IMG/VR virus record: IMGVR_UViG_3300036770_003758
Span: 1-64,000 of that record
Source: a virus
DNA length: 64,000 nt
Strand: one strand, 5' to 3'
The position numbers and the translations under genes were made by a program. The notes under the pieces were generated by a model. It ran no database searches, was not told the DNA's origin, and saw only the letters and a list, made by a program, of their open reading frames with translations. This document shows, piece by piece, positions 4,824 through 37,143 of the stretch; within the stretch, counting starts at the first letter, position 1, and each line of letters opens with the position of its first letter.

Positions 4824-5563
4824 TTAAGTACGTACCGTTAGAAGCTATATTAAACTACATCCCTGATGCTATTCGTGAGCAGGTAGATGCCCAGCAGATA
4901 ATGTCGTGGGCATATCTACTTTACAGGACTATAGAAATGCCTATCTCTGAAGAACTCAAGATTGTAGATGTTGAAGTTAAAAACCACAGAGTTAAGTTAC
5001 CTGATGATGTTAAACGCATTATCAACGTGATTCACAACGAACCTGGTGTTGATGTACCTAAAGAGATTGTGCGTGATTATGGTGACGGTAGGTTGATTAT
5101 AGCACAGGAGATATTCTTTTCTTCGCAGTATTATCAACAAGCTCGTGGTTTAAAGTACTTAGGTCAGATGAAGAGTCCTTTAATTGATGAGCAATTGTAT
5201 TGTAGTAGATGCGATGTAGGATTTTCTATTGATAAAACACTAAGTTGTTTACACATAGATTATTCTGACGGTAATGCTACATTGATATATTATGCTCCTG
5301 TAGAAGAGAATGGTAAAAAGATGATACCGGATGATCCAGATCTCATGCTTGCAATATCGCACTTTGTACAAGCTAGATACTGGCAAGAAAAAACCTATTC
5401 ACATGAAGCTAATGCAATAGCTTTATCTAGTGATCATCACATACGCTCACGTGCGCATTTAAGCGCATTTGAAGGTAGGGCTAAGCTTAAAGCAGTGAAC
5501 GTTAATAAGCACAACGCATTTAGGTTGAGACGAAATAAAATGTATAACTGGAATCGCAACTGA
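4820..5563 (+). CDS. putative tail ring/gatekeeper protein
   Basis: Immediately upstream of the muzzle-like gene; VKLPDD and MIPDD motifs. Confidence 0.55.
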   Translation: MIKYVPLEAILNYIPDAIREQVDAQQIMSWAYLLYRTIEMPISEELKIVDVEVKNHRVKLPDDVKRIINVIHNEPGVDVPKEIVRDYGDGRLIIAQEIFFSSQYYQQARGLKYLGQMKSPLIDEQLYCSRCDVGFSIDKTLSCLHIDYSDGNATLIYYAPVEENGKKMIPDDPDLMLAISHFVQARYWQEKTYSHEANAIALSSDHHIRSRAHLSAFEGRAKLKAVNVNKHNAFRLRRNKMYNWNRN

Positions 5564-13706: not shown

Positions 13707-13712
13707 TAAAAC

Positions 13713-16518: not shown

Positions 16519-19500
16519 ATGGCTAAAATACTTTCTCCTCAAGATCTAAGTACTGTAGATCGTGGTATACCTAAAATACCTTTAGGTGCATTTTCATTAC
16601 GGGATATCGCAGGGCGTACTTCATATGGTACACCTTCTGCGTTAAAGATTGATGATCTATCAGAATACGAAGGTGTAGATATAGATCTTGCTGTACGTGG
16701 TGGTGAGCGCGCATTACAAGAAGGTAGAGCATTACGTCAAACTGGTGCAGAGCTATTAGCTAAAGGTATAGGTAATATTGCTGAGAACGTAATCTTTGAA
16801 ACACTTAAGTTTCCTGGTACTATAGCTAGTGGTATAGGTATTGTAACTGGTAACGAGGGTATGATCAATAACTTGTGGTTACAAGGATTTGATGCTTTAC
16901 AGAAACCACTAACAGAACTCACTGAAGTATATGTACCACCTAGTGTTCAAGAGAAAGGTTTATGGGGTCAATTATCTAGTCCTTATTTCTGGGCTGGAGA
17001 AGGTGCTGATGCAATAGGTACTATGTTGTCTATGATGATACCTGGACGCTGGTTAGCTACATTTGGTTTAGGTGCTAAAGCCGCTAAAGGATTAGCTAAA
17101 GCTGGTAAGCTAGGTGAAATTGCTGTAGATGGTTCTAGGATACTAGAGACTACTGGGGATGCTAACAAGATAGGTAAGTTCTTAGTTAAAACACTAGGAT
17201 CTACAGGTAGGGGTATTGACTTTGGTAAACTAGCTAGGAACATAGATTCTGGTGTAGCAGTAGCTACTAACACACTATTAGAATCTTCTGCTGAAGCTTT
17301 AGATACTTACGAGAGCTTATTAGCACAAGGTAAAACACCTGAAGAAGCTGGTGAAGCTGCTACTAAGGTAATGATGTTGAACATGGGATTACTTACTGTG
17401 TCTAATACATTACTTGAAAAGTATGTGTTCAATGGTTTTAACCGTTTACCATCTGTAGGTAAACAACTTACTACAGCACTTAAAGGTGGTACTCCAGTAT
17501 ACAAACCTTTTCAACAAGCTGGTATAAAGTTTGCTGCAGGTGTGTTAGCAGAAGGCGTTATTGAAGAAGGTCTTCAAACTTCGTTTCAACAAGAAGAAGG
17601 TGATCCTATACGTTCCTTAGAAAGATATTTTGAAAACTTCCAAAGTTTATTTAGCGCAGACCCAGATATAGAATTTGGTAAAGCTGTAATACTGGGTAGT
17701 TTACTAGGTGGTGCAGTAGGCGGTATTAGTGGATTTGCTGATGTTAGAGATCAAAAAGCATTGCTACAAGGTAGACCAGAGCGTGTACTAGCTAAAGGTA
17801 GGTTAGGTACTCTACAAGGTATGCTTGGGTATAAAGCTAAGCAAGCTGAGAAAGGTCTTATTGATATATTCAGACCTAGCTTTGAAAGTCTTAAGACAGG
17901 TAAGGATATCCTAAAGAACTCTGTAAATGAAAAAGGAGAGTTTAACGTAGAAGCTTTAAACGAAGAGTCTACTATGTTTGCATTATCAAACATGGTAGAT
18001 GATATATTGCTGCAGAATAATGGTGATGTACAAGCATCTAAGACACAAGTAGCTGCTAGCCTTAGAGAACTAGGTATGTCAAGCGCATCTATAAAGAACT
18101 TGATAAACGGACTTATACCCAGCGATATAAATAACTTATCTGGAGAGCAAGTACTTAAGCTTATTACGCTTAAAAAAGATAACACATACTTTTCCAGGTT
18201 TGCTGCTAACCCTGCTGGTTTTGAGATGCTAGATGCACATATTGATGATATGGTAGATGCACTTGAGGAAAGGTATGAAATGAACACTGGTGCTAAGCTA
18301 TCTGATGAAAAAAAGAAAAGCATTAGTACTGATCTTAAATCTAAAGCTAAGCGGTACAAGAATATGTACGAAGCTGCTACTACGTTTAATAACAATGTAC
18401 GTTATGGTATTGAAGTAGCACGAGAAGATGCAGAAGATTTTAATGAGTTCATACGTATGACACAAGGTCAAACGTTAGGTTCTATGACCTATATAGAAGA
18501 ACTCCGTACAATTGCTGATGAAATTGAAAAAGAAACTAGCGCTGAACAACAGAAAATTAATACAGCTAGAAATACACTTAAGAATGCTAAAAAGAACGGT
18601 GGTGACCCTGATTTTATTAAAACCTTAGAACAAGATCTAGCTAAAGCAATCAGTGATGCTAATGCAGCAATACCTAATTTTGATAAAAAAAGAACAGATT
18701 TAGCTAGGATTCGTGAGAACGTAACTGCTCGTGAAAAGAATATTATTGAGTTTGGTACTGAGCCTAAAGTTAAAGAGAAATGGGAAGCATTCTTAGAAGT
18801 TAAGCGTGAAAAGAAAAAAGCTACTCAACAGTACTTTGACGGCATAGAAGTTGATACTAAGATAATGCCTGCAATGTACAAGATTATCTTTGATCAACTT
18901 GTTAATAAAGGATATGCACCGCAGTTAATAACAGATGTACCTTTTGTTAAGATAGCTGTATTCCATGCAACGTATGAAGATGATCTATACACCTTTACTC
19001 AGACTAAAGATGGATTTAATGTTCGTAACCATAGCGAAGAAACTGATGAAGTAGTTGCTAATTGGAAAGCGTTAATAGAGAAATTTCCTAAGTTATCTAT
19101 ACTTACTGTGGATCAGTATAACTTAGAAAAGAAACGTGTCGATAAAGAGATCGCTGATCGCAGAGCAGAACTAGAACAGCAAGCTGCTATTCAAGCACTT
19201 ACTGAATTATCTGATGAGATTAATCAACAGTTTGCTAAGATAGAAGCTGAATTACAAAGTAATTACAATACGTTGCAAGGCATTAGAGATAGCTTAGAAA
19301 CAAATAAGAAAACCCTTATAAGTAATCAAGGTAAACTTAAACGGACTAATAAAAAAGGTATGCCTGTAGAAGATCTTCAGGGTACTGTGACTAAACTTAA
19401 AAAGCTAGTCAAGGAACTTAAAACTCAACAAAAGAATATAACTAAAACTATAGCAAGTTTAGAAGCAGCTAAGATCAGGTTACAGTTTGAATCAAATGGT

Positions 19501-22500
19501 ATTAATAACTTAATTGAAAGAATGCAAGCTGGAACTTCTGTTAAATTTAATCAAGAAGCTTTACAAGATTTTGCAACAACAGAGTACGGTCAAGCTACTG
19601 GTGAGTTTTTACAAGAAGCTTTAGATTTTTCAAAGTTAAGTTCAAGTCAAAGAACTAAATCAGCGTTTTTAGAAAAGTTTGCCGAATATCAAATTAGAGC
19701 ACAGCAGCAGATATTAAATGTTGTTAATGAAGTCACACTAGCTAAACAGTTATCTGATGAGGTACAAGGTCTTATTAATTTAATTACTACACATATATCT
19801 GAAATTGGAGCAACTATCCCTGTAAAATCTTTATCTGATATTCCAGATAATGTTAAAGCTGAGCTGGAGAATAAGTTCCCTGGCGTACTTGAAGCTATGG
19901 ATAAAGCTTTAAAAAGTAATAATCCAGATGTTGTATTAAAGTTCTTAGCTGACTTAGTAAATAAAGTTAAAGATCAACATAGCGATACTTATGTAGAGGT
20001 GCTTAAGGATTTTGCTAACTTGTTACAACCTTACGTAGACTTATCCGCTGAAATAAGTTCTGATGTACTTAGCAATAGAGCAGAAGAGTTAGTAAAAAAT
20101 ATTGAAAAAAACGAAATGTACTACGTTGGCCTTAAAGCATTACGTAGGTTTGCTATATTGATTAAGTATCAAAAACAACTAACCAAACTTAAAAATCAAA
20201 TAATTAAAGGTTACTCGCCTAAAGAAGATCCTCAGTTAATACCTGATGTTGAAACACAAGATGTTACAGGTGACCCTACTCTATTTAGTAGCGAAGAACA
20301 AAATAGAAAAGTACTGTCATTATTTAATACTTCTGGGTTAAATATTGAGTACGATAATGACGGTAGTGATGTGCGTGCAGATATTCTCAACTTAGGTTAT
20401 ACATTACCTGTACCTTCACAATCTGATATTACAAGAAACTTCTTTCAATGGTTAGATAGCAACGATACTGGTAACTTTAAGGTAATACCTTACGCACCAG
20501 AGTTTAACGACACAGACTTTGATGATATTACAGATCCTGAAACAGCTAAGGTGCTTAGAGATTATATTGCAGGTACTCCTCCTGATGCTCGTGCAGAAGC
20601 TTTGTACGGTGTTGTTATAGAAGAAGTCGATGGTGTACGTATGCTTAAGATGTATAACGGCAAACCTTTGATTAATTCTATGATGCGTCCGCAAACTAAG
20701 TTTCCTAGAGATAAGAATCCTAGGATGGCTAGACGTGCGTATATAGGTTTATTCTTAAAAGATGTATTAGGTTTTGCATCTATACCTACAGATAAAGATT
20801 TAGTAAGTACAAATAGTCTTAATTTAACTAAATCTAGTATTGACAAATTAGAAAAGTATGGTATTTCTATACCGGATCCTAAGTCATTGACATCTCGTAG
20901 TTTCTACAATATGATAGAATCTTTTGCGTTAGTATATGCGCAAATGAAGTATCAGCAAGGATTTAATGAGCTGTTGTCTAAGACTAGAGAGCTAAAAGGT
21001 AATGATTTATCTTCGCGTAAATTGTTAGAAACTACTGGTATTAGTAAAGGATTTCAAGTAGTAGCTAAAACTATCAATGGTGAACCTGTACAATTTAACT
21101 CTGAGAACATGGAGTTAGAATATACTCAAGGAGGTAACCCTAAAAACTTTGATATACTTAAAGCTAATTTTGATGGTATAGCTACATTAAACGGTGTTAA
21201 GTACGATGCTTTACAACCTGGTCGTTTGTACATTAAAAAACATGATAGCAATACGTTGATACCTGTAGAAATGGGTATGTTGTCTAATAACGAAATAGAT
21301 GCTATCTTGTACATGCTTAGTATGTACGCAGATAACAAACGTTCATTAAGACAGATGATACCACAGCTAGATGGTAGTGTTAGGATTAAAAATACATATA
21401 TTAAATTATCTAATATGTCTATATTACCAGCTACTAAAGACAGAGTTAGTTTAATATCTATGATAATGAACTGGGGCTTTAAGGTTAAAGGAGATCCTTC
21501 ACCGTTTGATATTTATTTAAGTAAAGGTTCAGTAATATTTAACGATTCTTCAATATCATTAAATGCTCTTAAAAAAGCATACTTAGAAAACGATGCAGCT
21601 ACTTTACAACCACTAATAGCTTTTCTAAGGACAAAGCGTGTTAACGCTAATTATAACTTACTTGGTGTAGCTAATAACTTTTTTGAGTTTACTGTAGAGA
21701 GAGATAAAAAAACTAATAAACCATTTGACATTAAAGCTGTACAAAAACAAGGATCATACGCTAAACACATATTAGATCGTGCTTCGTTTTATGGTGCACC
21801 TAAAGATGTGTTAGATGCAGCAGGATTACCTAGTTCTGCACAGAAATATATTATGTTTAAAGACTTTGATACTAAAGTAGATGTAAATGAGTTTAGGGCT
21901 AAGACACCTAGTGCTAAACCTAAACCAGCATTTAAATCTAAACCTAGTGGAGTTAGTCCTGTTATAAATGCTTTAAAAGAAAGTAGCTCTATAACAGATT
22001 TTAGAACTAGAGCAGCTTCTTATCTTACAGATCCTGAAAGTGCAGGATTGTTTAGTAGGATATTAAAAAAGTTAAAAAATGAAAGTGGTCCTTTGTTTGA
22101 AGCAGAGAAGCTTTTAGTACTTAATGATAAAAGTATTGTTAGTAGTAAAACAACTGCAGACGTTACACCTGAAGAAAGTTCTGTTACAGTAAAAGATATC
22201 TTAAGTAGCTTGGAACAAGAAGAAACTCAGCAAGGTGAAGAGAGTGGTACTAACATTACAATGGAAGAAGCTTTAAGTACGCTGTGGGAACAAGTAGGTG
22301 GTAAACCTGAAACTCAAGAACAACCTGAAGCTGGTGCTATTGAAGAAGCTAGAAAAGCTGATATAGAAAAAAGTAAAAAGTTAACTAAAGAGTATGGAGA
22401 AGTAGCAATATCTGATGGGAAAAATGTAGAACAGAAATTAGCTCAAATAGGTAAGTTTTTTAAAGATAACTTTGGATGGAATATTACATACATAAAGGCC

Positions 22501-23769
22501 AGTAAAGAAAATGATAGGGTAGAATTTACTATTGACGGTAAGCAAGTAAATCTTCCTGCTGGAGCTAATATTAGATTAATGGCTGGAGGTGCTTATGCAG
22601 CTTTTACAATGGAAGATGTTATTGACGCTAAATACAATGCAGAATATCTATCTAATAGTGATTTAGGAAAAAGTATTTTAAAAAAGTTAAATTATAAGAC
22701 TATTAATAGATTACCTAACGGTAATGTTAAAGGTGGTCAAGATGGTTGGAAGATTAGATTTAATATTAAAAACCCAAAAACAGGTGAATCTTACTATGAC
22801 GATAAAGATGGTGGCAATCGTTTAGTTGATAATGAATATAACAAAAGAGCAGAAACTTTAATTAACTTTCTTCTTAATTATTTTGGAAGTAATAAAAAGG
22901 CAGATCCTGCTAAATTAGAAAACCATTATTTTATAACAGATCCAGATGGTACATCAAGAGAACCTTTTAAGCATTTAGCCGGAGGTGAAATTGGTGAATC
23001 TGATTTTACTATTTATATTGGTAGTGCGGACGATGTTTTAAAATTTATATCTGACATTAGAACTAAGCATCCTGAAATATTAAAACTTTTACACCAAGGT
23101 AATAAATCTCAAGATGTTTTGATAGATGATATATTTAAAGGTAGAATAGAAGGTCGTGACATTGGGTTTACCGGATATCACATTCCTCTTAACTTAGATA
23201 GTGTTATAAAAGACAAGCATTTTATATTTGAACATAACAATGAAAATGTTATTTTAAGTTACGAAGACTCACCTTATATAATCATAACAAAATCTGATGG
23301 TACAGTTAAAGGATATGGACCTGCTTTTGATAAAAATTTAAAGAAAGATTATCCTGATTTATATGAAAATATTAGGAACCTAGTAGGATTTGAATTATAT
23401 GGAACTTATCTTACAGGTTCTAATAATGAATTTGTAGAATTAATCAACAAGCAACCTAGTACTGAACCTACACCTACTGGTAACGTTGATGTAGCTACTA
23501 TAGATTTAACTAAATACACTCCTGAGATAGATGATGTTATTACTATTGAAGGTGTAGATTACACAGTTGTTAGTGAAGTTGGAAACACAGTTGTGTTGAA
23601 ATCTAACGTAGATACTAAATCTCTTAGTATTAGTAGAATAAGAAGTAATCTAGTTGATGGTTATTATAAATTTAAGAGTAGGATAGTTAAATCTGTAGCT
23701 GATTACAATAAGATATTAAGTGATGCTATACAGCGTGGTATTATTGACGAAATAAACTGTAATAGATAA
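16519..23769 (+). CDS. giant ejection protein (first of the crAss-like large-protein cluster)
   Basis: 2416 aa; N-terminal Gly-rich hydrophobic helices, long coiled coils, variable C-terminal modules. Confidence 0.75.
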   Translation: MAKILSPQDLSTVDRGIPKIPLGAFSLRDIAGRTSYGTPSALKIDDLSEYEGVDIDLAVRGGERALQEGRALRQTGAELLAKGIGNIAENVIFETLKFPGTIASGIGIVTGNEGMINNLWLQGFDALQKPLTELTEVYVPPSVQEKGLWGQLSSPYFWAGEGADAIGTMLSMMIPGRWLATFGLGAKAAKGLAKAGKLGEIAVDGSRILETTGDANKIGKFLVKTLGSTGRGIDFGKLARNIDSGVAVATNTLLESSAEALDTYESLLAQGKTPEEAGEAATKVMMLNMGLLTVSNTLLEKYVFNGFNRLPSVGKQLTTALKGGTPVYKPFQQAGIKFAAGVLAEGVIEEGLQTSFQQEEGDPIRSLERYFENFQSLFSADPDIEFGKAVILGSLLGGAVGGISGFADVRDQKALLQGRPERVLAKGRLGTLQGMLGYKAKQAEKGLIDIFRPSFESLKTGKDILKNSVNEKGEFNVEALNEESTMFALSNMVDDILLQNNGDVQASKTQVAASLRELGMSSASIKNLINGLIPSDINNLSGEQVLKLITLKKDNTYFSRFAANPAGFEMLDAHIDDMVDALEERYEMNTGAKLSDEKKKSISTDLKSKAKRYKNMYEAATTFNNNVRYGIEVAREDAEDFNEFIRMTQGQTLGSMTYIEELRTIADEIEKETSAEQQKINTARNTLKNAKKNGGDPDFIKTLEQDLAKAISDANAAIPNFDKKRTDLARIRENVTAREKNIIEFGTEPKVKEKWEAFLEVKREKKKATQQYFDGIEVDTKIMPAMYKIIFDQLVNKGYAPQLITDVPFVKIAVFHATYEDDLYTFTQTKDGFNVRNHSEETDEVVANWKALIEKFPKLSILTVDQYNLEKKRVDKEIADRRAELEQQAAIQALTELSDEINQQFAKIEAELQSNYNTLQGIRDSLETNKKTLISNQGKLKRTNKKGMPVEDLQGTVTKLKKLVKELKTQQKNITKTIASLEAAKIRLQFESNGINNLIERMQAGTSVKFNQEALQDFATTEYGQATGEFLQEALDFSKLSSSQRTKSAFLEKFAEYQIRAQQQILNVVNEVTLAKQLSDEVQGLINLITTHISEIGATIPVKSLSDIPDNVKAELENKFPGVLEAMDKALKSNNPDVVLKFLADLVNKVKDQHSDTYVEVLKDFANLLQPYVDLSAEISSDVLSNRAEELVKNIEKNEMYYVGLKALRRFAILIKYQKQLTKLKNQIIKGYSPKEDPQLIPDVETQDVTGDPTLFSSEEQNRKVLSLFNTSGLNIEYDNDGSDVRADILNLGYTLPVPSQSDITRNFFQWLDSNDTGNFKVIPYAPEFNDTDFDDITDPETAKVLRDYIAGTPPDARAEALYGVVIEEVDGVRMLKMYNGKPLINSMMRPQTKFPRDKNPRMARRAYIGLFLKDVLGFASIPTDKDLVSTNSLNLTKSSIDKLEKYGISIPDPKSLTSRSFYNMIESFALVYAQMKYQQGFNELLSKTRELKGNDLSSRKLLETTGISKGFQVVAKTINGEPVQFNSENMELEYTQGGNPKNFDILKANFDGIATLNGVKYDALQPGRLYIKKHDSNTLIPVEMGMLSNNEIDAILYMLSMYADNKRSLRQMIPQLDGSVRIKNTYIKLSNMSILPATKDRVSLISMIMNWGFKVKGDPSPFDIYLSKGSVIFNDSSISLNALKKAYLENDAATLQPLIAFLRTKRVNANYNLLGVANNFFEFTVERDKKTNKPFDIKAVQKQGSYAKHILDRASFYGAPKDVLDAAGLPSSAQKYIMFKDFDTKVDVNEFRAKTPSAKPKPAFKSKPSGVSPVINALKESSSITDFRTRAASYLTDPESAGLFSRILKKLKNESGPLFEAEKLLVLNDKSIVSSKTTADVTPEESSVTVKDILSSLEQEETQQGEESGTNITMEEALSTLWEQVGGKPETQEQPEAGAIEEARKADIEKSKKLTKEYGEVAISDGKNVEQKLAQIGKFFKDNFGWNITYIKASKENDRVEFTIDGKQVNLPAGANIRLMAGGAYAAFTMEDVIDAKYNAEYLSNSDLGKSILKKLNYKTINRLPNGNVKGGQDGWKIRFNIKNPKTGESYYDDKDGGNRLVDNEYNKRAETLINFLLNYFGSNKKADPAKLENHYFITDPDGTSREPFKHLAGGEIGESDFTIYIGSADDVLKFISDIRTKHPEILKLLHQGNKSQDVLIDDIFKGRIEGRDIGFTGYHIPLNLDSVIKDKHFIFEHNNENVILSYEDSPYIIITKSDGTVKGYGPAFDKNLKKDYPDLYENIRNLVGFELYGTYLTGSNNEFVELINKQPSTEPTPTGNVDVATIDLTKYTPEIDDVITIEGVDYTVVSEVGNTVVLKSNVDTKSLSISRIRSNLVDGYYKFKSRIVKSVADYNKILSDAIQRGIIDEINCNR

Positions 23770-26700
23770 TGGCTTGTCAATACGTATTTCAAGGTAAGAC
23801 ATATAATAAAAGATCTATTCTTAATGCAATTAAGGATGGTGATGTTGTACTTGGTGATATCCAAACAGCACGTGAGAACATACGTAAGATTCTGAACATG
23901 AACGATTCTGAGATAGAACTTGTTCGTGGTCTTATTGATAACGATGCTGTTGGTGCATTTACACAAGATGGTAGGATACTATTATCTGATCGCTTTGTAC
24001 AAGGTGAAGAATATCACGAAGCATTCCATCGTGTGTTTAGAACTGTATTTAGTGATGCGCAACGTAAAGCATTGTTTAAAGAGTATCGTAATCGTGAAGG
24101 GTTTCAAGAATCTTTAGATCAAAAACGTAAACTCTATCCTAATCAGAGTACAGAAGAACTTATCGAAGAAGTACTTGCGGATGAGTTCATGATGTATCAG
24201 TTAGCTAACGGTAACTACGTAGTGCCTAAGCCTATACAGAATGCATTTCAGCGTATCCTAAACTTTATTAGAAAGTTACTTGGACTCAAGGATATCGCTG
24301 GTGTATACGAATCTATACGTGCTGGTAATTACAAAAGTGTAAAACCTAAGTTTTATAAAAGTACTAGGTTAGCTAAATCTAAAGTAAAAGTTGGTAATCT
24401 TGAGTTAGATGTATTTCAGAAAAATGAAATACTAGATGCAGTTATTGCTAAGTTTAGTACTTCGTTTATAGAAGAAGTTAGCGATAAAGATTCTTTTGAA
24501 GATGTAGATATTAACAGGCATTTAATCGATGGTATAGAAAATGTAATAGATCTTTTACGAGAAGATTTTTCAAGCAGTAAAAAGCAACAGTTAGCTAATA
24601 GTATTGAAGACGATGCTTTAGTGTATATACCTGTACAAGATATTGAAGGTAATTTTTACACGCAAAAAAATATAAATGCTAACTCACCTATTGTAGAAGA
24701 ACTAACGTTACGCTTAGATCAGCTTAGGATTAAAACTAAAGAAGAAACGCCAGAGCCTGAAGAACTTAATGATGAAGAAGCAGTTACTAATGATTATGCA
24801 TTTCTAAAAGCTAGCTGGGAAACAAATCCAGAGGATAACATTACGCTAGCTATGAAGATCTTCGCTACTTCAATAGAGAGTTCACAGCTTAGTGATTACT
24901 ACGCATTACCTAAACCAGAACCTTATGGTAAGGTAATTATGACGCTGTTTAAAGTACTTAAGAATGCTACACATAACTGGGATGTAGTAAAGAACTTACT
25001 TGAAAATAACGTAGATATCAACCCTTGGATACAAACTATTCTAGATCGTTTGCAAAACAACTTAAAGTTACGCACACAGTTTGTACGATCATTTGTAAAA
25101 GCACACTACGATATGTACAGCGGTATCTGGGTTAAAGAAGAACTACAGGTACAACCGTTAGAAGATGAAACTAGATTTATATCTTTAATACGCGAGATTA
25201 AAGATTACATTAACATACTTGGAGATAGAGAACTTATAGTTAGTCCTAGTTTATCAGATCCTAATTTATCTACTAAAGAGAAGTTTCGTATACTTACAGG
25301 TATAGAACTATCTGATGAAATATTAAAAGGTACAATAAACACCAGTAAAGGTCTTACAACAGGTGAAGAGATTGCCGATAATATAATTGCTGTTACTCGT
25401 ACAAACATAAATGAAGGTGTTCAGTACAAGGATCTATTTAATAACAAAGTATATAGACCTACTGATAAATCAGAAAGACCTGAAGATTATTCTGTACTAG
25501 GTAACTTACGTCGTCTTCTTAATGAGTATAACAAATATAGACCTAATGAACAAGGTGTGGTACTTAATCACAATCGTGATAGAGTATGGCCTTGGACTAC
25601 GCACACGTATCAAAAGCAAGTAGAGTCTGCACTTAACTTAGTTGCTAATTTAACACCTAGTGAACTAGCAACTATTGATTCTGGTATAACTGAAGGTGGA
25701 TTACTCCCCGAAGAAGTTAATATGCAAAAGCGTATTGCTAAACTTAGAGAGTTGCTACCTTGGTTTGTAGATTACAAGTTTAACTTTTACGTAGATGAAA
25801 ATGGATTAACTAAAACTAACTCGTTAATACTTAAGCGTATACTAGAGCAAGGAGATACTTACTCTATATCTATATTTAGTGGTATGCGTTTAGATGATGG
25901 TACTGACGCTAAGGATTTACTTACACCAGATATGATACCTATGTACATTAGGTCTATGAGTGGATTAGAACCTAAGTACATTAGCGTTAAGCATGGTGAT
26001 CGTGGTGCTATATTTGCTGGTGGTTTTGAAAGTAAAGTAAAATATACAGATGATATAACTGCACAAGACTACTTAGCTTCACTACTACTAGACGAGATTA
26101 ACTTAATTCGCGATAGTAAAACGTACAGTGTCTTTAAAAAAATGGGTGACGGTAACCTTAAGATATTTGAGTTTCTAGACATTGATGCAAATGAACTGCA
26201 AACGTTAGTCAATGACATGACGTTGACTTCAAACAAGTTACACAAGAAGTATAAAGAAAGTTTTGATAAGTATGTAGAAGGGATTGAAGCAGACTTTAAA
26301 AACTTATTGAAAGAAGTCTATGCTAACTTTGAAGGTAGAAGATTTGATGATGTATTTACTAAACCTGGAGAAACAAAAGTACCTTTTTATACTACAGCAG
26401 AGGTGTTTAGTATGTACAAAAACGATGAAGAAATTCTTATCAAAGAAGTAGTTAAGAATTATTTGATACACTTCCACGAAGACATGCGTGTATTTGTAGG
26501 ATACGCAGGTGAGTATCCTAACATGGTAAACTTGTTTAAACGTATTCAAAGTTTATCTTCTTCTGGTACTCCACTAGTTAATGACGGTGAGCTTAATAGC
26601 TACATTGATAATAAAAATCAACAAGATGCGTACGCAATTATTACAAATGGTGAAGTTGAAATGCGCACGTATGGTGATCGTAACTTAAAGCAAAAAGGTA

Positions 26701-29700: not shown

Positions 29701-30662
29701 GTACTACACCTTTGTATTTACTTAAGCTAAGAAGTAGGGGTGATAACGCATTACATCTATATGATCTGTATCAAAACTTTGAAGATCTTGTAGATTCTGT
29801 TGTAGGTACAGAGTATGAAGCAAGTATGCACGAACTTGTACGTAAACTTATTGCGTACAACGTATACACTACTGGATTTGGATTCTCACCATTTACATTA
29901 GATGATGCAGTATCTCCTAGGTTAGTCAACAAGTTGTACAAAGAAATAGATTTTTACAACACTAAGGTTACAGAAGAAGATGTTACACAGTTTGCTAACT
30001 TGTTTGTAGCTATGAACCCTAATGTATTTAGGTTTAAAATTAAACCTAAGAAGAATGAAACAAACTTTTTTAGAAATGTGAGATATAAGTGGGATGGTAC
30101 TTTTACAGCTAATGAAACAAACGTAACTATTTTAGGTAACTCGTACGCTAAACGTTATGATAGTAAAGTACCTGAATACTTAACTATTTCTGTTCCACGT
30201 GGAACTCAAGCTCAAGTACAACCTACACCTGCAACTGAACAGGAAATATATAAATGGGCTAGGTATTCACAAAATTCGTACGAAGTATCTTCACAAGGAG
30301 ATAAAAGATTTAGTGCTTTATACGCTACGTTAAAAGACGGTAGAACTATTGAAGAAGCATATCAACTCGATGTTAAAGGTTACAGGAGTAAAGGTAATGA
30401 TTGGAGATTAGGTAAAGGTAAGGCACCTTTAAGAAATATTAGTAGAGAGCAATCTTGGGAAGAATACAAACAGTTGTGGAGAACTTACTTAAACGAAAAT
30501 CCTGAGTTGTTAAAAGAATTACAAGATAAAGCTAGAGGTAAAGTTCTCACAGATAAATTTGCATCTACAGATATTTCACAAGCAAGAGCTTTAGCTGAAA
30601 TATTAAATGAAAAATCTATTGAACAACAGATTCCTGATGAACTAACAAATCAATGTAAATAA
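23769..30662 (+). CDS. virion-packaged double-psi-barrel RNA polymerase with N-terminal zincin-like domain
   Basis: RIPNQ...SSDFDIDK (DFDID at 28224-28238, the catalytic motif of crAss-like RNAPs such as phi14:2 gp66); HEAFH at 24015-24029 followed by EEVLADEF. Confidence 0.92.
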   Translation: MACQYVFQGKTYNKRSILNAIKDGDVVLGDIQTARENIRKILNMNDSEIELVRGLIDNDAVGAFTQDGRILLSDRFVQGEEYHEAFHRVFRTVFSDAQRKALFKEYRNREGFQESLDQKRKLYPNQSTEELIEEVLADEFMMYQLANGNYVVPKPIQNAFQRILNFIRKLLGLKDIAGVYESIRAGNYKSVKPKFYKSTRLAKSKVKVGNLELDVFQKNEILDAVIAKFSTSFIEEVSDKDSFEDVDINRHLIDGIENVIDLLREDFSSSKKQQLANSIEDDALVYIPVQDIEGNFYTQKNINANSPIVEELTLRLDQLRIKTKEETPEPEELNDEEAVTNDYAFLKASWETNPEDNITLAMKIFATSIESSQLSDYYALPKPEPYGKVIMTLFKVLKNATHNWDVVKNLLENNVDINPWIQTILDRLQNNLKLRTQFVRSFVKAHYDMYSGIWVKEELQVQPLEDETRFISLIREIKDYINILGDRELIVSPSLSDPNLSTKEKFRILTGIELSDEILKGTINTSKGLTTGEEIADNIIAVTRTNINEGVQYKDLFNNKVYRPTDKSERPEDYSVLGNLRRLLNEYNKYRPNEQGVVLNHNRDRVWPWTTHTYQKQVESALNLVANLTPSELATIDSGITEGGLLPEEVNMQKRIAKLRELLPWFVDYKFNFYVDENGLTKTNSLILKRILEQGDTYSISIFSGMRLDDGTDAKDLLTPDMIPMYIRSMSGLEPKYISVKHGDRGAIFAGGFESKVKYTDDITAQDYLASLLLDEINLIRDSKTYSVFKKMGDGNLKIFEFLDIDANELQTLVNDMTLTSNKLHKKYKESFDKYVEGIEADFKNLLKEVYANFEGRRFDDVFTKPGETKVPFYTTAEVFSMYKNDEEILIKEVVKNYLIHFHEDMRVFVGYAGEYPNMVNLFKRIQSLSSSGTPLVNDGELNSYIDNKNQQDAYAIITNGEVEMRTYGDRNLKQKGKIKEKVLTGPRVSYTQAEKENLAAIHKANLIKEGFPEKIAEKRAEEWVSVFNKYEEADGVTFTNMFFYREYKDRLGEWNQNMENAFQIELAILNQNDLNPEVFFAEGDRVFANRPANLPVIRIKAFDLSNENAARVFNKLEPFTMLKPVYTGPVEHQGATVNGIRKTALHVILPSMVFGTDKMQSIHDYMLRNNVDMIALDSATKKAVPSNVEDINLKIYSTNEDTFTILDTMYLKEQVKMSNDEKGRIKNATQSTTIVFTNIFEEDPRGFSKPKDYTGERPWNELTDEEKLAQSKVFTKYTKYKEALDAVVTMHMDRVKEDLGVVNDNITDIELVTEILRTNINVPSVRDALNYVTEAKSLDLLPSFNRIEPALLSIVSNEAVRIKRPGEMLAQYSVYGMDEVTISGVKSKRLQNYRIEGNVIRPAEIIVPLPKSMAAQLMKRFKTNNLVEAIQRYNKNKKKIIVKGLRIPNQQLSFNGIYEIKEFALPTMQNYIVLPSEIVPVSSSDFDIDKQQVYWPILDDRGNMVQTDEARVYNRLLQAEIDLLLDPSNFHTLMAPVNEAWFSKDLFKDILIKRGEYTAEQLNSDEKLENAVIKFTFKEIGNIASQIRTAINMTQSKLNVGLMATNAKMYPVGQADSWKASSVVANEDDVLIANLIPFEGDKQHFFALYDSDYRHITEIISTLMTSQLDGVKNPYAVALNIVKNSIGPMMFMVRRGMPINLIARIIASPVVMRYNTVTNLFKSNSAKARRIYPKTSGQNNVLHFMYSFKGKSAIENYLNEFKNRDRIVSSATVLKALSDKTLKTEDSLQVLAGYMYVEELAKAMLEISTAMTPDTKPLGNMSMVDVMFKKYQDFADSFRRKAGMINQDFRTGFLKPFYNAQKLYQLFGNLYFTRKDKLANYLTVELGTQVSAGAISVDDRARVKNTFVNDFKAYMFFKKLNESEEYKGKYTFDAIMTNSNLVDEIASIRQDETHPISTNYLIQNLIPITGIATDPDGTTPLYLLKLRSRGDNALHLYDLYQNFEDLVDSVVGTEYEASMHELVRKLIAYNVYTTGFGFSPFTLDDAVSPRLVNKLYKEIDFYNTKVTEEDVTQFANLFVAMNPNVFRFKIKPKKNETNFFRNVRYKWDGTFTANETNVTILGNSYAKRYDSKVPEYLTISVPRGTQAQVQPTPATEQEIYKWARYSQNSYEVSSQGDKRFSALYATLKDGRTIEEAYQLDVKGYRSKGNDWRLGKGKAPLRNISREQSWEEYKQLWRTYLNENPELLKELQDKARGKVLTDKFASTDISQARALAEILNEKSIEQQIPDELTNQCK

Positions 30663-30663
30663 C

Positions 30664-32184
30664 ATGGCTTGTCAAATTAAAAGAAAAGATAACGGTACTA
30701 TAGATACTGTACTAGCACCTAATGGTAAACCTAGTGTGTTATACAACTCACTTGTAAATGCTATTGCTAGCTCAGAAGTAACTAGAAACGTTATACAATC
30801 TGATCCTTATGTAAGTTCTGTAATGGATAGTGTATATGTAATGGATAACACTGCTGAAGAACTTGCACTAGCTGCTTGGAGTAAGGCGTATACCATAGAC
30901 TTTATAGATAGCTTTGGTAACTGGAAAGAAGATAAATTACCTGATACAGATAGTAACGGTGAGCCTACTGTAAACATGTTATTTCCAGAGATTACAGATA
31001 CTGGTGTTAAACCTGGTGTATCTGAGTTGTTTGATTCTAATCCTGAGTTAGCTAATCAAGTATATGAAGCTTTAGGGTATAAAACAGAAGCTGCAAAAAG
31101 AGTTGAAAAAGCTAATGAAGATATTAAAGAAATACAAAAAATTGGAGTTGATACAGAATATGAGGATGTAGTTAAAAGTTCAGATAAGAATAGGTTTCAT
31201 TTTTTAGATACTAATATATTTACAGATAAAAATCAAAAATCAGTAAATATTGAACATGTAAGAGTACCTGAAAAATACAGAAATAAAGGCTACGGTTTAA
31301 GCATGTATATAGTAAGAGGAGAAGAACTTTTAAAAGAAGGTAAATTTCTTATAAGCTATGACCAACATTCTCCAGAAGCAGAAACAGTTTGGCAAAGGTT
31401 ATTACAATTAGGGTTAGCTACACAAGAAGGAGAATATGGCACATATCAATATGTAGGTTTAAAAAACCAAGAAATAACCCCAGAACAAAAACAACAAGCT
31501 CTACAACTATACTCTCAATACTTAGATACTATATTCCCTAATAGTAAAGTAAAGGATATTGTTTATCATGGTAGTCTTTCAAAGTTTGATAGTTTTTTAA
31601 AAGGAGTTACTAAAAGAACAACTTCTTCTGACGGTATATGGTTTACAGATTCAAAAGAACTAGCAAAAGAATATTCTATATCTGAAAAAATAGTTCATGT
31701 AGGAATTGAATATGATGTTTTAAAAAAATTAAAATCTGAAAATTCAGCTAAAAGTTATAAAATATCATCAGGGCTTGATGCAGATAATTACCAAGATTTT
31801 GTTAAAAAGTATGGAGAAAATAAAATAAACCAAGGTGTTATAATAGAAACAGAAAATTTAAACATAGTATATCCTTCAATAGTTAATATTAAAAATTTAA
31901 AAATCATTGACGGTGAAGGATTTAATCAATTTGCAAGAGATAAGGAAGTTAAAAAAGCAAAAAATGAAAATAAAGATGGTCTTATCATAAAAAATACATT
32001 AGATACAATAAGTAATAATTATGATTTAAGAGCTAATACAATAACTGTATTTGAACCAGAACAAATACACATACTCGGTACTCCACAAGATATAGAAGGA
32101 TTTAAAAAGTTTGTATCTAAACCTACACAACCAGTAAGTAACGAGTGGACTAACGTAAAAAATAACTGTCCTAAACTAATTTAA
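30664..32184 (+). CDS. polyvalent protein with GNAT-like and ART-PolyVal-like ADP-ribosyltransferase domains
   Basis: APNGKPSVLY; FGNW..DSNGEP; VPEKYRNKGYG (GNAT motif A); VYHGS..F..F..GIWFT..A.EY...DGLII..VFEPEQI. Confidence 0.7.
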   Translation: MACQIKRKDNGTIDTVLAPNGKPSVLYNSLVNAIASSEVTRNVIQSDPYVSSVMDSVYVMDNTAEELALAAWSKAYTIDFIDSFGNWKEDKLPDTDSNGEPTVNMLFPEITDTGVKPGVSELFDSNPELANQVYEALGYKTEAAKRVEKANEDIKEIQKIGVDTEYEDVVKSSDKNRFHFLDTNIFTDKNQKSVNIEHVRVPEKYRNKGYGLSMYIVRGEELLKEGKFLISYDQHSPEAETVWQRLLQLGLATQEGEYGTYQYVGLKNQEITPEQKQQALQLYSQYLDTIFPNSKVKDIVYHGSLSKFDSFLKGVTKRTTSSDGIWFTDSKELAKEYSISEKIVHVGIEYDVLKKLKSENSAKSYKISSGLDADNYQDFVKKYGENKINQGVIIETENLNIVYPSIVNIKNLKIIDGEGFNQFARDKEVKKAKNENKDGLIIKNTLDTISNNYDLRANTITVFEPEQIHILGTPQDIEGFKKFVSKPTQPVSNEWTNVKNNCPKLI

Positions 32185-32196
32185 AACTATACAACT

Positions 32197-32688
32197 ATGA
32201 TGTTAGATAAAGAACTATTAGAACTGTTTAACTACAGGATCAACCAAGAAGAAGCTAGTGCCAGGTTATATCTTAAAATGTCTATACACCTAAATGACGT
32301 AGGATATTTTAATGCCGCTAAACTGTGGAAAAAGTTCTCAGAAGAAGAACGTGAGCACGCAGATATCGCACGTAAGTATCTACTAGCACTAGATATTGAA
32401 CCAGAGACTAGAGATATTATTGTACCTAGCAAAGAGTTTAATGGCCTAGATGGTGTTATTAACGCTACGCTAGAACATGAGTATGAAGTTACACAGCAGT
32501 GTGAAGACTTAGCTAAAGCTTGTCTTAAACAACTGTGTTTTAAATCATTCTCTATTGCACAGGAATATATTAAAATACAAATACACGAGCTTGAGGAATA
32601 CCACGATATGAAAAATAGATTAGATCTATTTGGTACTGATCCTATTAGCTTACGTTTGTATGATAACGAACTCAAAGATATGTTATGA
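32197..32688 (+). CDS. non-heme ferritin-like protein
   Basis: INQEE..LYL.MS, EEEREHA, LEHEYEVT, QIHE ferroxidase-type pattern; 163 aa. Confidence 0.85.
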   Translation: MMLDKELLELFNYRINQEEASARLYLKMSIHLNDVGYFNAAKLWKKFSEEEREHADIARKYLLALDIEPETRDIIVPSKEFNGLDGVINATLEHEYEVTQQCEDLAKACLKQLCFKSFSIAQEYIKIQIHELEEYHDMKNRLDLFGTDPISLRLYDNELKDML

Positions 32689-33080
32689 GCTGCGCACCCT
32701 TTAGTGATCCACTGATGAACGCGTTGTCATATCTATACACAAATAAAGCTATAGATAAGGATATGCGCATCAGAACTAAACGCATAGACTTCTACTTGAA
32801 CATCCTTGATAAGCAAGCTGGTGTCAAGCTATTTGATATCATGGAAGATACACTAGTACCTATCCAAGAGAACTTTAATACTATGCGTGGTCTTGAGCAA
32901 GCTGATGAAGTAGCACCAATACCATCTTATACAGATCGTATTGCAGAAGGTAGATCAGAAGCTAAGGAAGTGTGGAATAACTCTGATAAAAAACTACCGT
33001 CTGGTTTTGACGAAGATCAGCGTATGTACTTAGAAGAATTATTTAATGAAGGTATATTAGAACTCAACTGTACGTTATGA
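32685..33080 (+). CDS. small ejection-cluster protein with N- and C-terminal Cys
   Basis: MSCAPF...GILELNCTL; ATGA-coupled on both sides. Confidence 0.7.
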   Translation: MSCAPFSDPLMNALSYLYTNKAIDKDMRIRTKRIDFYLNILDKQAGVKLFDIMEDTLVPIQENFNTMRGLEQADEVAPIPSYTDRIAEGRSEAKEVWNNSDKKLPSGFDEDQRMYLEELFNEGILELNCTL

Positions 33081-36000
33081 GCTGTAAAACACCAACGTTT
33101 GAAGAACTAATGCAAGCTGTTAAAAACAGAACGTTTTTAAAAATAGCTAAAGAAAAAACTCAAGACGGTATTGTAGAAGCACTTAAGTTTACAAGTGATG
33201 TTCTTCAATTACGCCAGCAGAATGTAAATCCTAAGAACGTAGGTGATGATACTTCTCGCTATACGTTAATAGATCCTAGTGCTGGAGATACTTCTGTGTT
33301 CTTATCTAATCGTGTAACAGATAGAGTAGCTAGGTACTATCGTAAGATATCTGAGAAACCTGCTAACGCTAATTTTACACAGATGAACTACGGTACTTCT
33401 GTGCACAAATCTATGCAGAACTTACTACTAGCACACTACGAACAGATGATGAACAATGTTCCAGTAGATGTTAATGCTATCTACGCAGTTCAAGCTGGTG
33501 ATCAGTATGCACTTAGTTTAGAAATGGTTAAAGAACTTAGTAAGTATGCAGCTAAGCTTTTAAAGGATATCGACGCAATGCAAAAAGCTATTGACCCTAA
33601 AGGTACTTTTAGAATAGCTGTTGAAAACGTAGTCGTAGATCCCGTTAAAGATTTAGCTGGTACTGTAGACTTAGTAGTAGTATTTTCAGATGGTACTGCA
33701 GGAGTCTATGACTTTAAAACAATGTCACCGAAGTCCAATGTCATAGAAAGAAATATGTTTGGTATGATTACCAATGTTACTGGTAGAGACTTTGTAGCTG
33801 CTACTACTAGAACAGGTTGGAGTATGCAGATGAACTCTTATCGTGATACATTACTAGAATATTACGGTGCTAAAGACGTTAGGTTTACTAGGGTTATTCC
33901 TATGTTTATGAACTATACGTTAGATGAGAATAAACAAATCACTGGTCTTAGAGAAATTATAACTGAAGCTAACTTTGAACAGCTATCACCTAGATCTGTA
34001 GGTGTAGAAAAGTTTACTAACGCAGCTATCAACGAGTTTCTAAAAACTAGGTACGAGTATATAGAGCAGTTAAATCAACAGATACAATCTGCTTCTAGAT
34101 TAGAGCGTCCTAAATTGTATCAGCAGTTAAACCAAGTATATGACTCTATAGACATGTTTGTTAACAACATGGATATTACCATGCTAGTTAACGATGCCCG
34201 TATTGTATCTGAAGGTACTTACGAAACATTATCTGAGCTTAGAGATGCGTACACGTTTGTAAAAGCTATTGTAGATCTGCAACGTAACTTAACAGATACA
34301 GTTGATGATTTTGATATTACCTTTGACGAAGGTGTAATAGATACGTTAGCTAAACGTGCAGCAGTACTACATGAAAAGTATATCAAGTTAATTCTTGATG
34401 GTGTTGAAGGTAAATACGGTAAGCTTAACGTAGAAGGTGGTGAGATACTACTTAGTGAAGATGACCTACTTACACAGATTTTTAGTACTACTACAGAATC
34501 TCAGAACCCTATTGTAAGATATGCACAAGATTTATTTCAAGGTAGTTACAACGATCAACGTAGAGACCTTAAAGATTTTGATGAAGCATTAGCTAAGGTA
34601 GAAAAACCTTTACTTGAATGGGCTAAGTCTAGAGGTGAAACATTAGCTGATGTGTATAAGTATTTACTCGATGTTGAAAATGGTAAGTTCTACGGTAGAG
34701 TAGATCTAGCATTTATCGCACGTGCTAATCAAGAACGTGATGCTGAGAACGTAGAGTTCTTTACTAAGAACTACGAGATAAAAGATAAGAACGCTAAAGG
34801 GGAAACGTATAAAGAATGGTACAATCGCAATATAAAAGAACTAACGCAAGTACTTGAAGCTAGGTTTAAAAACTTAGATGAAAATCAACGTGTAACTGCT
34901 ATACAACGTGCACTTGATAACTGGCAGAGCAATAATGATCTAAAGTTAGTAAACGGTATACCTCAGTTTCCTAATGCTTGGTTGAATAAACACAACAGTT
35001 GGCTTAAGATTAAACCAGGGGTACTTGCCGCTAATCAATCTGAGCAGTATACGTTTATGAAAGCTAATAAGCCACTGCTAGATTATTACGAGTTCTTACG
35101 CGATAGTGTAGCTAAGTGGAGAGGAGAAACTAGTTATAAGCTCATAGATAGTTATTTGTTCTACCCTATGGTTAGAGCTAGTACTATTGAAAAACTAGGT
35201 AGGACTAATGCTTACGGTACTTTACTCAAAGATATTAAAGAAGTACTTGAGATCAAACAAGATGATCAACTCTTTGGTGTATCTGAAGTTAATGACGATG
35301 GTACTGTAGTAGAAGCTAAGCAGATACCGCTGTACTTTACACAACCATTTAGGAATGCTGCAGGTGGTATAGATACATCGCAGATGAGTACAGATATCAG
35401 TGCTAGCTTTAGGTTAATGGCTAAGTCTGTGTACAACTACAAGTACATGAATCAGATTGAAGCTGATATCCTAGCGCTGCAAGATGTACTTAAAATGGTC
35501 AACTACGAAGAAGGTGGTTGGGGTAAAAAAGTAGTTGACTTCATGAACAGTGTAGCTAAGAAAGATAAAACAGAATCTGGTTCTATGACCGATACTGTAT
35601 TTAAAGCACTTAGAGACTATCACTTGTATGGTATTAGGTTGCAGCCAGGGTTTAACCCTAAGTTTGTAAAAGCTGTAGATAGTGCTATGCAGTGGTTTAC
35701 ACTTAGGTCATTAGGTTTAGGTATCATACCAGCTACTACTTCTTATGTTGCTGGTCAAGTAAGTGCTAGGTTAGAAGCTGTTAAAGGTCAAATATGGGAT
35801 ACTGAAAAATGGAACTTAGCTACCAAGCTGATGGCTAAAGAATCTAAGAAGTATCACGGTATAGGTTTCTTCTTTGGTGTACACAACGAAGATATGTTAC
35901 AAGATATCTTACGCCAACGTGTAGGTGGTGTATCTTCAGTACTAGGTAATACGCTGTACAACAACAACCTTAACAAGTACGTAGATCAGCGTTTGTTAAT

Positions 36001-37090
36001 GGCACCGTGGTCTTATGGTCAAGAACGTTTAGATAATCACATTGCTGTAGCAATGGCACATAGCTATGGTTTTGATAGCAACGGTAATGTAAGATTATTA
36101 ACTAACCTACCACAAGAGAATCAAAAGAGTGTCTATGAGCGTATGATCTTTGACGAAGCTAAAGGTAGCTTTACTATTGAAGGTCTTAATGAAGAGCAAA
36201 CTTCCAGGGCTATATTACAGTTTCAACAAGCTGTTAGAGCTGGTCAAAAGCGTGTTACCGGTACGCTATCACAAGAAGATATTGCATACTGGCAAACCAC
36301 GTTAACAGGTAGGTTATTCATGCAGTTTAAATCTTGGATGCCTTCTATTCTTAAAGAAAGATTTGGTGCTACTAGGTTTAACGACATATTAGATGTAGTA
36401 GAACAAGGTAGGTATCGTGCTGTGTGGGAGAATAACGAAATAGAAGATAATACAAATACGTTTGTATATCTGCTGCATACCACTAAGAATACAGCAGCGT
36501 TTATAGTTAAGAATCTACTCATGACAAATAGTATTGCACGTAGATTTGGTGCTAAGGTTAAGCTAGATGATATTAAACTTAGAAAACAGTACGCTGCATT
36601 TTTAAAAAAGTACGAGAAGTACCCTGGTATGCTAGAGAAGATACCTACGTTTGAATCTTTTGTGCAAATGAAAGAAGGTCAAATACGTGCTGCTATTGGA
36701 GAACTAGAAGTCTTAATACTACTTTCAGCAGCTATATTCTTATTAGGTTCTGATTTTGATGATGACGGTGAACCACTGTGGTCTGAGACTTGGGTAGCAC
36801 ACCAGATCTTTAAAGTACTTAACCGTACTAAAACAGAACTTAGCTTTACGTACAATGCTATGGAATACGCTAAGCTAGTAGCTAACCCCATACCTATTAC
36901 GGGGTTATTGATGCATGTAATTAAGCTACTTGGAAATACATTAGACGAGACTAGGGATACAATGTTTGGAGAAAACAACCAACGTGATAAAGCAAACAAG
37001 CTACATTACTCTACAGGTTTAGTCCAAGGGGTGTATCAGCTTAGGAAATTTTTTGATATCCTTAGCGTAGATGAAGCAGCTACTCGTTAA
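33077..37090 (+). CDS. large ejection protein with a PD-(D/E)xK nuclease-like domain
   Basis: GTSVH...VENVV..LAGTVDLVV..GVYDFKT..QMNSY; C-terminal GRLFMQFKSWMP...GRYR region typical of crAss-like large proteins. Confidence 0.75.
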   Translation: MSCKTPTFEELMQAVKNRTFLKIAKEKTQDGIVEALKFTSDVLQLRQQNVNPKNVGDDTSRYTLIDPSAGDTSVFLSNRVTDRVARYYRKISEKPANANFTQMNYGTSVHKSMQNLLLAHYEQMMNNVPVDVNAIYAVQAGDQYALSLEMVKELSKYAAKLLKDIDAMQKAIDPKGTFRIAVENVVVDPVKDLAGTVDLVVVFSDGTAGVYDFKTMSPKSNVIERNMFGMITNVTGRDFVAATTRTGWSMQMNSYRDTLLEYYGAKDVRFTRVIPMFMNYTLDENKQITGLREIITEANFEQLSPRSVGVEKFTNAAINEFLKTRYEYIEQLNQQIQSASRLERPKLYQQLNQVYDSIDMFVNNMDITMLVNDARIVSEGTYETLSELRDAYTFVKAIVDLQRNLTDTVDDFDITFDEGVIDTLAKRAAVLHEKYIKLILDGVEGKYGKLNVEGGEILLSEDDLLTQIFSTTTESQNPIVRYAQDLFQGSYNDQRRDLKDFDEALAKVEKPLLEWAKSRGETLADVYKYLLDVENGKFYGRVDLAFIARANQERDAENVEFFTKNYEIKDKNAKGETYKEWYNRNIKELTQVLEARFKNLDENQRVTAIQRALDNWQSNNDLKLVNGIPQFPNAWLNKHNSWLKIKPGVLAANQSEQYTFMKANKPLLDYYEFLRDSVAKWRGETSYKLIDSYLFYPMVRASTIEKLGRTNAYGTLLKDIKEVLEIKQDDQLFGVSEVNDDGTVVEAKQIPLYFTQPFRNAAGGIDTSQMSTDISASFRLMAKSVYNYKYMNQIEADILALQDVLKMVNYEEGGWGKKVVDFMNSVAKKDKTESGSMTDTVFKALRDYHLYGIRLQPGFNPKFVKAVDSAMQWFTLRSLGLGIIPATTSYVAGQVSARLEAVKGQIWDTEKWNLATKLMAKESKKYHGIGFFFGVHNEDMLQDILRQRVGGVSSVLGNTLYNNNLNKYVDQRLLMAPWSYGQERLDNHIAVAMAHSYGFDSNGNVRLLTNLPQENQKSVYERMIFDEAKGSFTIEGLNEEQTSRAILQFQQAVRAGQKRVTGTLSQEDIAYWQTTLTGRLFMQFKSWMPSILKERFGATRFNDILDVVEQGRYRAVWENNEIEDNTNTFVYLLHTTKNTAAFIVKNLLMTNSIARRFGAKVKLDDIKLRKQYAAFLKKYEKYPGMLEKIPTFESFVQMKEGQIRAAIGELEVLILLSAAIFLLGSDFDDDGEPLWSETWVAHQIFKVLNRTKTELSFTYNAMEYAKLVANPIPITGLLMHVIKLLGNTLDETRDTMFGENNQRDKANKLHYSTGLVQGVYQLRKFFDILSVDEAATR

Positions 37091-37109
37091 AGTACGTGAG
37101 CGGTGCGGT

Positions 37110-37143
37110 AAAAAAAAGGACTACACCGCGTAGGTGTAGTCCT
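37110..37143 (-). terminator. rho-independent terminator at the convergence of the two arms
   Basis: aggactacacc-gcgta-ggtgtagtcct, 11-bp stem; A-run at 37110-37116 gives a U-tract on the - strand. Confidence 0.85.

Follow-up and report, generated by a model that had tools for sequence, protein, structure and literature searches.

Facing terminal cysteines at the protein breaks of a crAss-like phage cargo block and a candidate head-to-tail disulfide chain

Within a 64,000-nucleotide stretch of viral DNA (hereafter the window; positions 1 to 64,000 of the 102-kb IMG/VR record IMGVR_UViG_3300036770_003758), the interval 16519-37090 holds six tightly coupled open reading frames (ORFs), all read in one direction, five of which encode proteins whose only cysteines lie at their ends (Table 1). 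A first-pass annotation, made from the sequence alone, had counted eight cysteines in these five proteins and proposed that they join a set of ejection proteins tail to head in gene order. ORF calls and translations bear out the positions and the count: across 6,687 amino acids (aa), each of the eight cysteines lies no more than five residues from a terminus. The annotation had skipped the sixth ORF, a ferritin-like gene with three internal cysteines. The terminal cysteines follow a parity rule, in that the first member has no N-terminal cysteine, the last has no C-terminal cysteine and the middle members have both. The likeness that had been pointed out between two of the C-termini (GIIDEINC and GILELNC) is real, and belongs to a broader C-terminal tag, G-x-h-x-h-x-C, found in relatives.

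At the genome's own rate of 1.14% cysteine, calculated from gene proxies outside the cargo block of the same record, about 76 cysteines would be expected in 6,687 aa versus the eight found, and the probability that all eight would fall within five residues of an end is about 1e-17. Among 79 other ORFs, three have a cysteine at positions 2-6 and five have one in the last 11 residues, while none has both. The three cargo-type proteins encoded just upstream contain no cysteine at all across 1,930 aa.

Table 1. Features of the cargo block and its surroundings, in window coordinates.
Feature	Position	Strand	Length (aa)	Cysteines and other traits
Candidate chain member 1: giant cargo protein, gp47/g067-like	16519..23769	+	2416	C2414 only (codon 23758-23760); tag ...RGIIDEINCNR
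Candidate chain member 2: predicted catalytic virion RNA polymerase	23769..30662	+	2297	C3 (23775-23777), C2296 (30654-30656); tag ...IPDELTNQCK
Candidate chain member 3: polyvalent payload with ART-PolyVal	30664..32184	+	506	C3 (30670-30672), C502 (32167-32169)
Candidate chain member 4: two-ended adaptor	32685..33080	+	131	C3 (32691-32693), C129 (33069-33071); tag ...EGILELNCTL
Candidate chain member 5 (last): polymerase-associated protein, gp49/g065-like	33077..37090	+	1337	C3 only (33083-33085)
Interposed ferritin-like gene	32197..32688	+	163	Internal C102, C109, C114; no terminal cysteine
Three cargo-type proteins	10714..16517	+	607, 389, 934	crAss_CARG1 domain in the 389-aa protein
Muzzle protein	5563..9528	+	1321	12 cysteines; crAss_MUZ; CrAss_Ring_1 and CrAss_Ring_2 just upstream
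HExxH (zincin-like) domain of the polymerase	23769-24209			N-terminal
phrog_9995-matching domain of the polymerase	30249-30614			Residues 2161-2282
Inverted repeat GCGGTG ... CACCGC	37091-37135			Around an A-run

Sequence matches place the window in a crAss-like phage. The Pfam families CrAss_Ring_2 (2e-18), CrAss_Ring_1, crAss_MUZ (1.9e-24) and crAss_CARG1 are matched beside the block, which we read as a crassvirus virion module because of this muzzle context. By BLASTP, the 2416-aa protein is 28% identical to g067 of phage phi14:2 over residues 66-406 (E 2e-29), the 2297-aa protein aligns to crAss001 gp50 and phi14:2 g066, and crAss001 gp49 is a homolog of the 1337-aa protein (E 1e-10). In the 2297-aa protein, the motif DFDID (residue 1486) lies inside these alignments (DFDID at 1361 of g066, DFDVD at 1483 of gp50), and pins to this protein the virion RNA polymerase (RNAP) that had been claimed for the set; by these matches it is the putative catalytic polymerase. 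Homology thus supports the earlier claim of ejection status for three of the five proteins, while the 506-aa and 131-aa proteins qualify by position and cysteine pattern only. All five are probably packed and injected by the phage. Other searches returned less: PDB sequence searches with the three giant proteins gave no matches, PHROGs gave little information, and single-protein scans for close relatives found only one near-identical contig.

The remaining proteins could be characterized in part. The 506-aa protein matches PF18760 (ART-PolyVal) over residues 299-468 (36.4 bits versus the Pfam cut-off of 31.2), begins with a connector, MACQIKR..., and ends in ...WTNVKNNCPKLI; the 163-aa protein matches Pfam Ferritin (E 1.9e-19). 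No Pfam family was found for the 131-aa protein, and its AlphaFold2 model had no significant Foldseek match in PDB. The model is mostly helical, with predicted local distance difference test scores below 50 at residues 1-3 and 129-131, which places both adaptor cysteines in low-confidence, presumably flexible tails. Since this protein has N-Cys and Asn-Cys ends, an intein or split intein with a HINT fold was considered; it was rejected given the lack of a Pfam family, the variable residue before the C-terminal cysteine (N, D, E, R or Q) and the helical model. The polymerase carries an N-terminal zincin-like domain (HEAFH) and, just before its cysteine tag, a domain matching phrog_9995. This accessory domain shares 47-57% identity with small proteins that phiKZ-like jumbo Pseudomonas phages encode beside their DNA polymerase gene, and also has a weak DUF488-N3i match.

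The first-pass annotation had suggested comparing cysteine positions across Crassvirales, and the pattern is kept down to 22% identity and between families. In crAss001, gp47 (2341 aa) has C2339 only, gp50 has C5, C1334 and C2404, and gp49 has C5 only; in phi14:2, the sole cysteine of g067 (1797 aa) is its last residue, g066 has only C3 and C2179, and g065 has C3 only. The same parity is found in the window, in its relatives G001 and G003, in crAss001 and in phi14:2. In six Suoliviridae the gp47-like protein and the polymerase are fused (4460-4946 aa), with a cysteine 2-11 residues from the C-terminus, and the next protein has a cysteine at position 3 or 6 wherever the next gene is in the record (5 of 6). 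Across 32 distinct IMG/VR loci (22-60% identity), a cysteine at positions 3-6 is present in every gp49-like protein for which the true start is visible, and the protein upstream of it has one in its last 1-7 residues. Both cysteines are present at 36 of 51 adjacent junctions, and the remaining 15 mostly adjoin a split gene, a spurious overlapping ORF or an interposed ORF that has no terminal cysteine; interposed ORFs of this last kind are skipped by the pairing pattern, and two-ended small adaptors (124-296 aa) recur in these loci. Stand-alone polymerase homologs have a cysteine at positions 3-6 in 20 of 20 cases. All 13 that are full-length have exactly two cysteines; in 12 of them the second is no more than 11 residues from the C-terminus, and in the other (P0171) it is 68 residues away. 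Internal cysteines number three in 72,819 aa of the four protein families.

Terminal cysteine pairs depend on a protein break. In the Suoliviridae fusions no cysteine lies within about 250 aa of the equivalent of the window's 2416/2297 break. The fused protein P0190 (3691 aa) has a single cysteine, at 3688, and that of Flavobacterium phage Fpv1 (gp33, 4401 aa) has a single cysteine at 4400, followed by a protein that begins MAC. In p-crAssphage (BK010471), the gp47-like protein, gp45, ends ...SCM, and gp44, a fusion of the polymerase with the gp49-like protein, begins MSC (Cys3) and has no C-terminal cysteine; a swapped gene order in this phage was rejected on these assignments. At locus L063, the gap splitting the polymerase gene is a group I intron (RF00028, 73.6 bits; 5781-6077), and there is no cysteine pair there. 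The intron sits after ...AKAGSD. In cr108_1 the gene is annotated as two coding sequences with the same split, and this site is also where several database 'proteins' about 1500 aa long stop; a gap at locus L029 had no Rfam match.

Domain content does not fix the cysteines either. Residues 46-147 of the window polymerase, which include HEAFH, match the C-terminal domain of crAss001 gp47 (2116-2207), and the cysteine of each lineage stands at its own break. The HExxH domain is N-terminal in the window polymerase and C-terminal in crAss001 gp47 and p-crAssphage gp45, so the gene break has crossed a domain. Furthermore, crAss001 gp47 and gp50 are encoded on opposite strands, 11 kb apart; with the partner genes separated in this way, a DNA signal at the junction cannot account for the pattern.

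Close relatives show how the two lineage-specific members, the 506-aa payload and the 131-aa adaptor, fit the pattern. A complete relative with 40-47% identity, G003, reproduces the whole arrangement: in order, a 2542-aa protein ending ...TNCK, a 2391-aa protein with C3 and a cysteine as its last residue, an 1110-aa protein with C3 and C1107, a ferritin-like protein, a 128-aa protein with C3 and C126, and a 1337-aa protein with C3. Among homologs of the 131-aa protein, C3 and the C-terminal cysteine are invariant down to 38% identity, within a conserved N-terminus (MSCAPFxxPLxNALSYLYTNKxID). Members of the 506-aa family have in common an N-terminal module (M[AS]CQIKR..., about 110 aa) ahead of payloads of 141-1935 aa, and 16 of 18 cluster representatives (141-1935 aa) keep both terminal cysteines. 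In these 16, the first cysteine occupies position 3, except in one representative called from a start six codons further upstream, where it falls at position 9; the second is 0-4 residues from the C-terminus, and only one of the 16 has any other cysteine.

These ends appear to be mobile. In other lineages, where a long gp49-like form comes directly after the polymerase, its N-terminus repeats the first 33-65 residues of the 506-aa protein, which by sequence suggests that the connector goes with a protein's place in the chain. The G-x-h-x-h-x-C tag, meanwhile, precedes short gp49-like proteins and is carried by either the polymerase or a small adaptor, suggesting that the C-terminal tag tracks its downstream partner. 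Together with the varied payloads, this is evidence that payloads may be exchangeable between fixed connectors.

The comparisons show a pattern that is conserved and that depends on a protein break; from it we infer a bond, its timing and a function. The probable explanation, in our judgment, is that the cargo proteins are joined by heterotypic head-to-tail disulfides formed in the released virion. Each C-terminal cysteine (1-5 residues from the end) would pair with Cys3 of the next cargo protein in gene order, bypassing the ferritin-like gene, to give a chain running from the gp47-like protein (2416 aa) through the RNAP (2297 aa), the ART-PolyVal payload (506 aa) and the adaptor (131 aa) to the gp49-like protein (1337 aa). 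The disulfides would form after the particle has left the reducing cytoplasm, the host cytoplasm would reduce them again upon injection, and other cysteines would have been purged to stop mis-cross-linking of a dense, partly unfolded cargo. Such a chain could hold the injected proteins together in a set order and stoichiometry and, because its links run end to end, could pass a narrow channel as one strand.

The closest known parallel is cyanopodophage A4 (Anabaena phage A-4L), in which cryo-electron microscopy shows Cys1715 of gp27 disulfide-bonded to Cys5 of gp26, next to a docked C-terminal helix (PMC12002296). In the A-4L genome, these two are the sole cysteines of gp27 (1717 aa) and gp26 (1114 aa), and gp29 has none. 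As in the window, adjoining ejection-protein genes thus encode a lone C-terminal cysteine facing a lone N-terminal one in otherwise cysteine-free proteins. A4 differs in having one such junction versus four, no polymerase, and an ordered pentameric pre-ejectosome. Since the window proteins have no BLASTP match to A4 gp26-gp29 at E <= 0.01, the likeness appears to lie in the rule and not in detectable descent. The A4 paper states no general cysteine rule (PMC12002296), cargo cysteines are unmentioned in both the crAss001 structure paper (PMC10172136) and the phi14:2 polymerase preprint (bioRxiv 10.1101/2020.03.07.982082), and our full-text literature searches found no description of a terminal-cysteine rule.

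Among crassviruses, the crAss001 (gp47, gp50, gp49) and phi14:2 (g067, g066, g065) homologs share the parity of the window proteins, though with three members versus five; the window adds the two-ended ART-PolyVal payload, the 131-aa adaptor and the ferritin-like gene. The cargo proteins of crAss001 (PMC10172136) and phi14:2 were found in virions by mass spectrometry, evidence that is confined to these two phages. In crAss001 virions grown anaerobically, disulfides link subunits at the portal vertex and within the tail, and the authors consider that ejection order is probably set by packing and mutual interactions (PMC10172136). The phi14:2 polymerase was purified and crystallized in dithiothreitol and tris(2-carboxyethyl)phosphine (bioRxiv 10.1101/2020.03.07.982082).

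Several observations weigh against a disulfide chain or limit its form. The polymerase cysteine tag (...IPDELKC...) is internal in G001, G002 and P0171, followed by 68-573 further residues; in the close relatives G001 and G002 (L001 5811-6923 and L004 3885-5606) the extension is 370-573 aa. A linear thread is therefore not obligatory, nor is the link necessarily strictly terminal, and of the earlier proposal of tail-to-head joining in gene order, the part that stands is that the cysteines behave as junction pairs, while a strictly linear thread is opposed by these internal tags. In p-crAssphage, gp47 (857 aa; L074 5588-8161) has a lone cysteine, Cys856 (...KQSCR), and the next protein, gp46, has none, leaving no obvious partner. 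Suoliviridae and p-crAssphage also tolerate 3-8 internal cysteines. Gut phages, moreover, live at low redox potential. The cargo was unresolved in the crAss001 maps (PMC10172136), and the bond has been observed in no crassvirus.

The ejected proteins of other podoviruses bear on the same question. T7 gp15 and gp16 and the N4 virion RNAP (gp50, 3500 aa), gp51 and gp52 have no cysteine (L072, L073), and T7 gp14 has Cys2 only. These internal virion proteins are thus like the window proteins in having no internal cysteines and unlike them in having no facing terminal pairs; the N4 polymerase is a single 3500-aa chain. Because T7 and N4 ejected proteins are also free of cysteine, purging alone is no evidence for a chain: avoidance of cysteine seems to be a general trait of the proteins that podoviruses eject, and what sets the window proteins apart is that they retain facing pairs. 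In addition, passage of the disulfide-linked proteins through the tail as a pulled thread is less certain than the chain itself, and a clasp like that of A4, which would fix stoichiometry and arrangement, is as consistent with the data.

Alternatively, the facing terminal thiolates could share a metal ion, as the first-pass annotation had allowed; Zn, Fe or Cu would then give a reversible, non-covalent junction. Residue 2 is usually Ala or Ser, and methionine aminopeptidase removes the initiator methionine before either, which would leave an amino-terminal X-Cys chelating motif; acidic residues are frequent just before the C-terminal cysteine, and a ferritin-like gene lies within the block. 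We nevertheless consider a metal bridge unlikely, as each terminus offers a single cysteine with no conserved histidine or second cysteine near it, the sole solved analogue, in A4, is a disulfide, and the strict purge of thiols better suits a guard against oxidative mis-pairing.

Disulfides might also form out of gene order, either between like ends (C-C or N-N) or with another part of the virion, for instance an inner capsid protein or the portal. Volume estimates for crAss001 permit several copies of each cargo protein, the example given being six of each polymerase-associated protein (PMC10172136), and the unpartnered cysteine of p-crAssphage gp47 would be accommodated. Homotypic pairing, however, leaves unexplained both the missing N-terminal cysteine of the first member and C-terminal cysteine of the last, and the joint loss of both junction cysteines on fusion, while the C1 and C2 homologs beside the portal have no cysteine that could serve as a partner; pairing of this kind therefore seems improbable.

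It is more doubtful still that the conserved ends act as signals for packaging or docking, or as sites of another modification (for example acylation), with no redox link. Conservation does extend beyond the cysteines: in the 131-aa protein it covers the whole of the first ~25 residues, and in the 506-aa family the N-terminal module of ~110 aa. At the A4 junction, a C-terminal helix is docked in a cleft. Yet the cysteines are kept while the surrounding sequence differs widely between lineages, and docking gives no reason for purging every other cysteine. Self-closure of two-ended proteins by an intramolecular N-to-C disulfide, which would suit the three middle proteins with exactly one cysteine per end, is very unlikely: it leaves orphan thiols on the first and last members in every lineage, fusion costs one cysteine in each of two proteins and not two in one, and a circular protein would pass less easily through a narrow channel. 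All of these chemical, docking and self-closure explanations account less well than heterotypic disulfides for the parity rule and the loss on fusion. Finally, although the genes are tightly coupled (TAATG and ATGA overlaps) and two starts have a common ATGGCTTGTCAA, chance, composition or a nucleotide junction signal (such as translational coupling) that happens to encode cysteine is refuted by the comparative data, given the probability calculated above, the range of cysteine positions (3 to 6) in differing codon contexts and the persistence of the pattern in crAss001 with non-adjacent partner genes.

If the cargo proteins are indeed linked end to end by disulfides, this would give a concrete answer to what the crAss001 study describes as an open question, namely how the ~5 MDa crassvirus cargo, including a split virion RNAP, is ordered and delivered (PMC10172136), and would account for the near absence of cysteine from that cargo. 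The terminal-cysteine rule could then predict injected phage proteins, and in this lineage flags the ADP-ribosyltransferase payload and the small adaptor as injected cargo. What the window adds is a candidate five-member chain, two lineage-specific two-ended members, an interposed ferritin-like gene and relatives with an internal tag. The payload resembles polyvalent proteins in carrying ART-PolyVal (PF18760) and in the free swapping of internal domains among its relatives; the usual description of polyvalent proteins is of one giant fused polypeptide, whereas the window payload is a separate protein with cysteine-bearing ends. A tentative extension, which we regard as possible rather than probable, is that the ends are modular connectors: an M-x-Cys module and a C-terminal cysteine tag could splice any payload into an ordered injection train behind the polymerase, with effectors such as the ADP-ribosyltransferase being swappable and the connector types setting the order of delivery.

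The ferritin-like gene is conserved at the same place in relatives. Because its product has no terminal cysteine, the terminal-cysteine rule would leave it outside the chain; it could handle iron or oxidants, or could itself be packed. Elsewhere, a ferritin-like (di-iron) gene lies in or beside the cargo block at L024 8532-9020, L025 9130-9618, L030 7418-7894 and L060 13947-14426. The polymerase extension beyond the tag in G001 and G002 has a weak PG_binding_1 match; the window polymerase has its accessory domain ahead of the tag instead. Just past the last gene of the block, where plus- and minus-strand gene blocks converge, the inverted repeat around an A-run (Table 1) may be a terminator.

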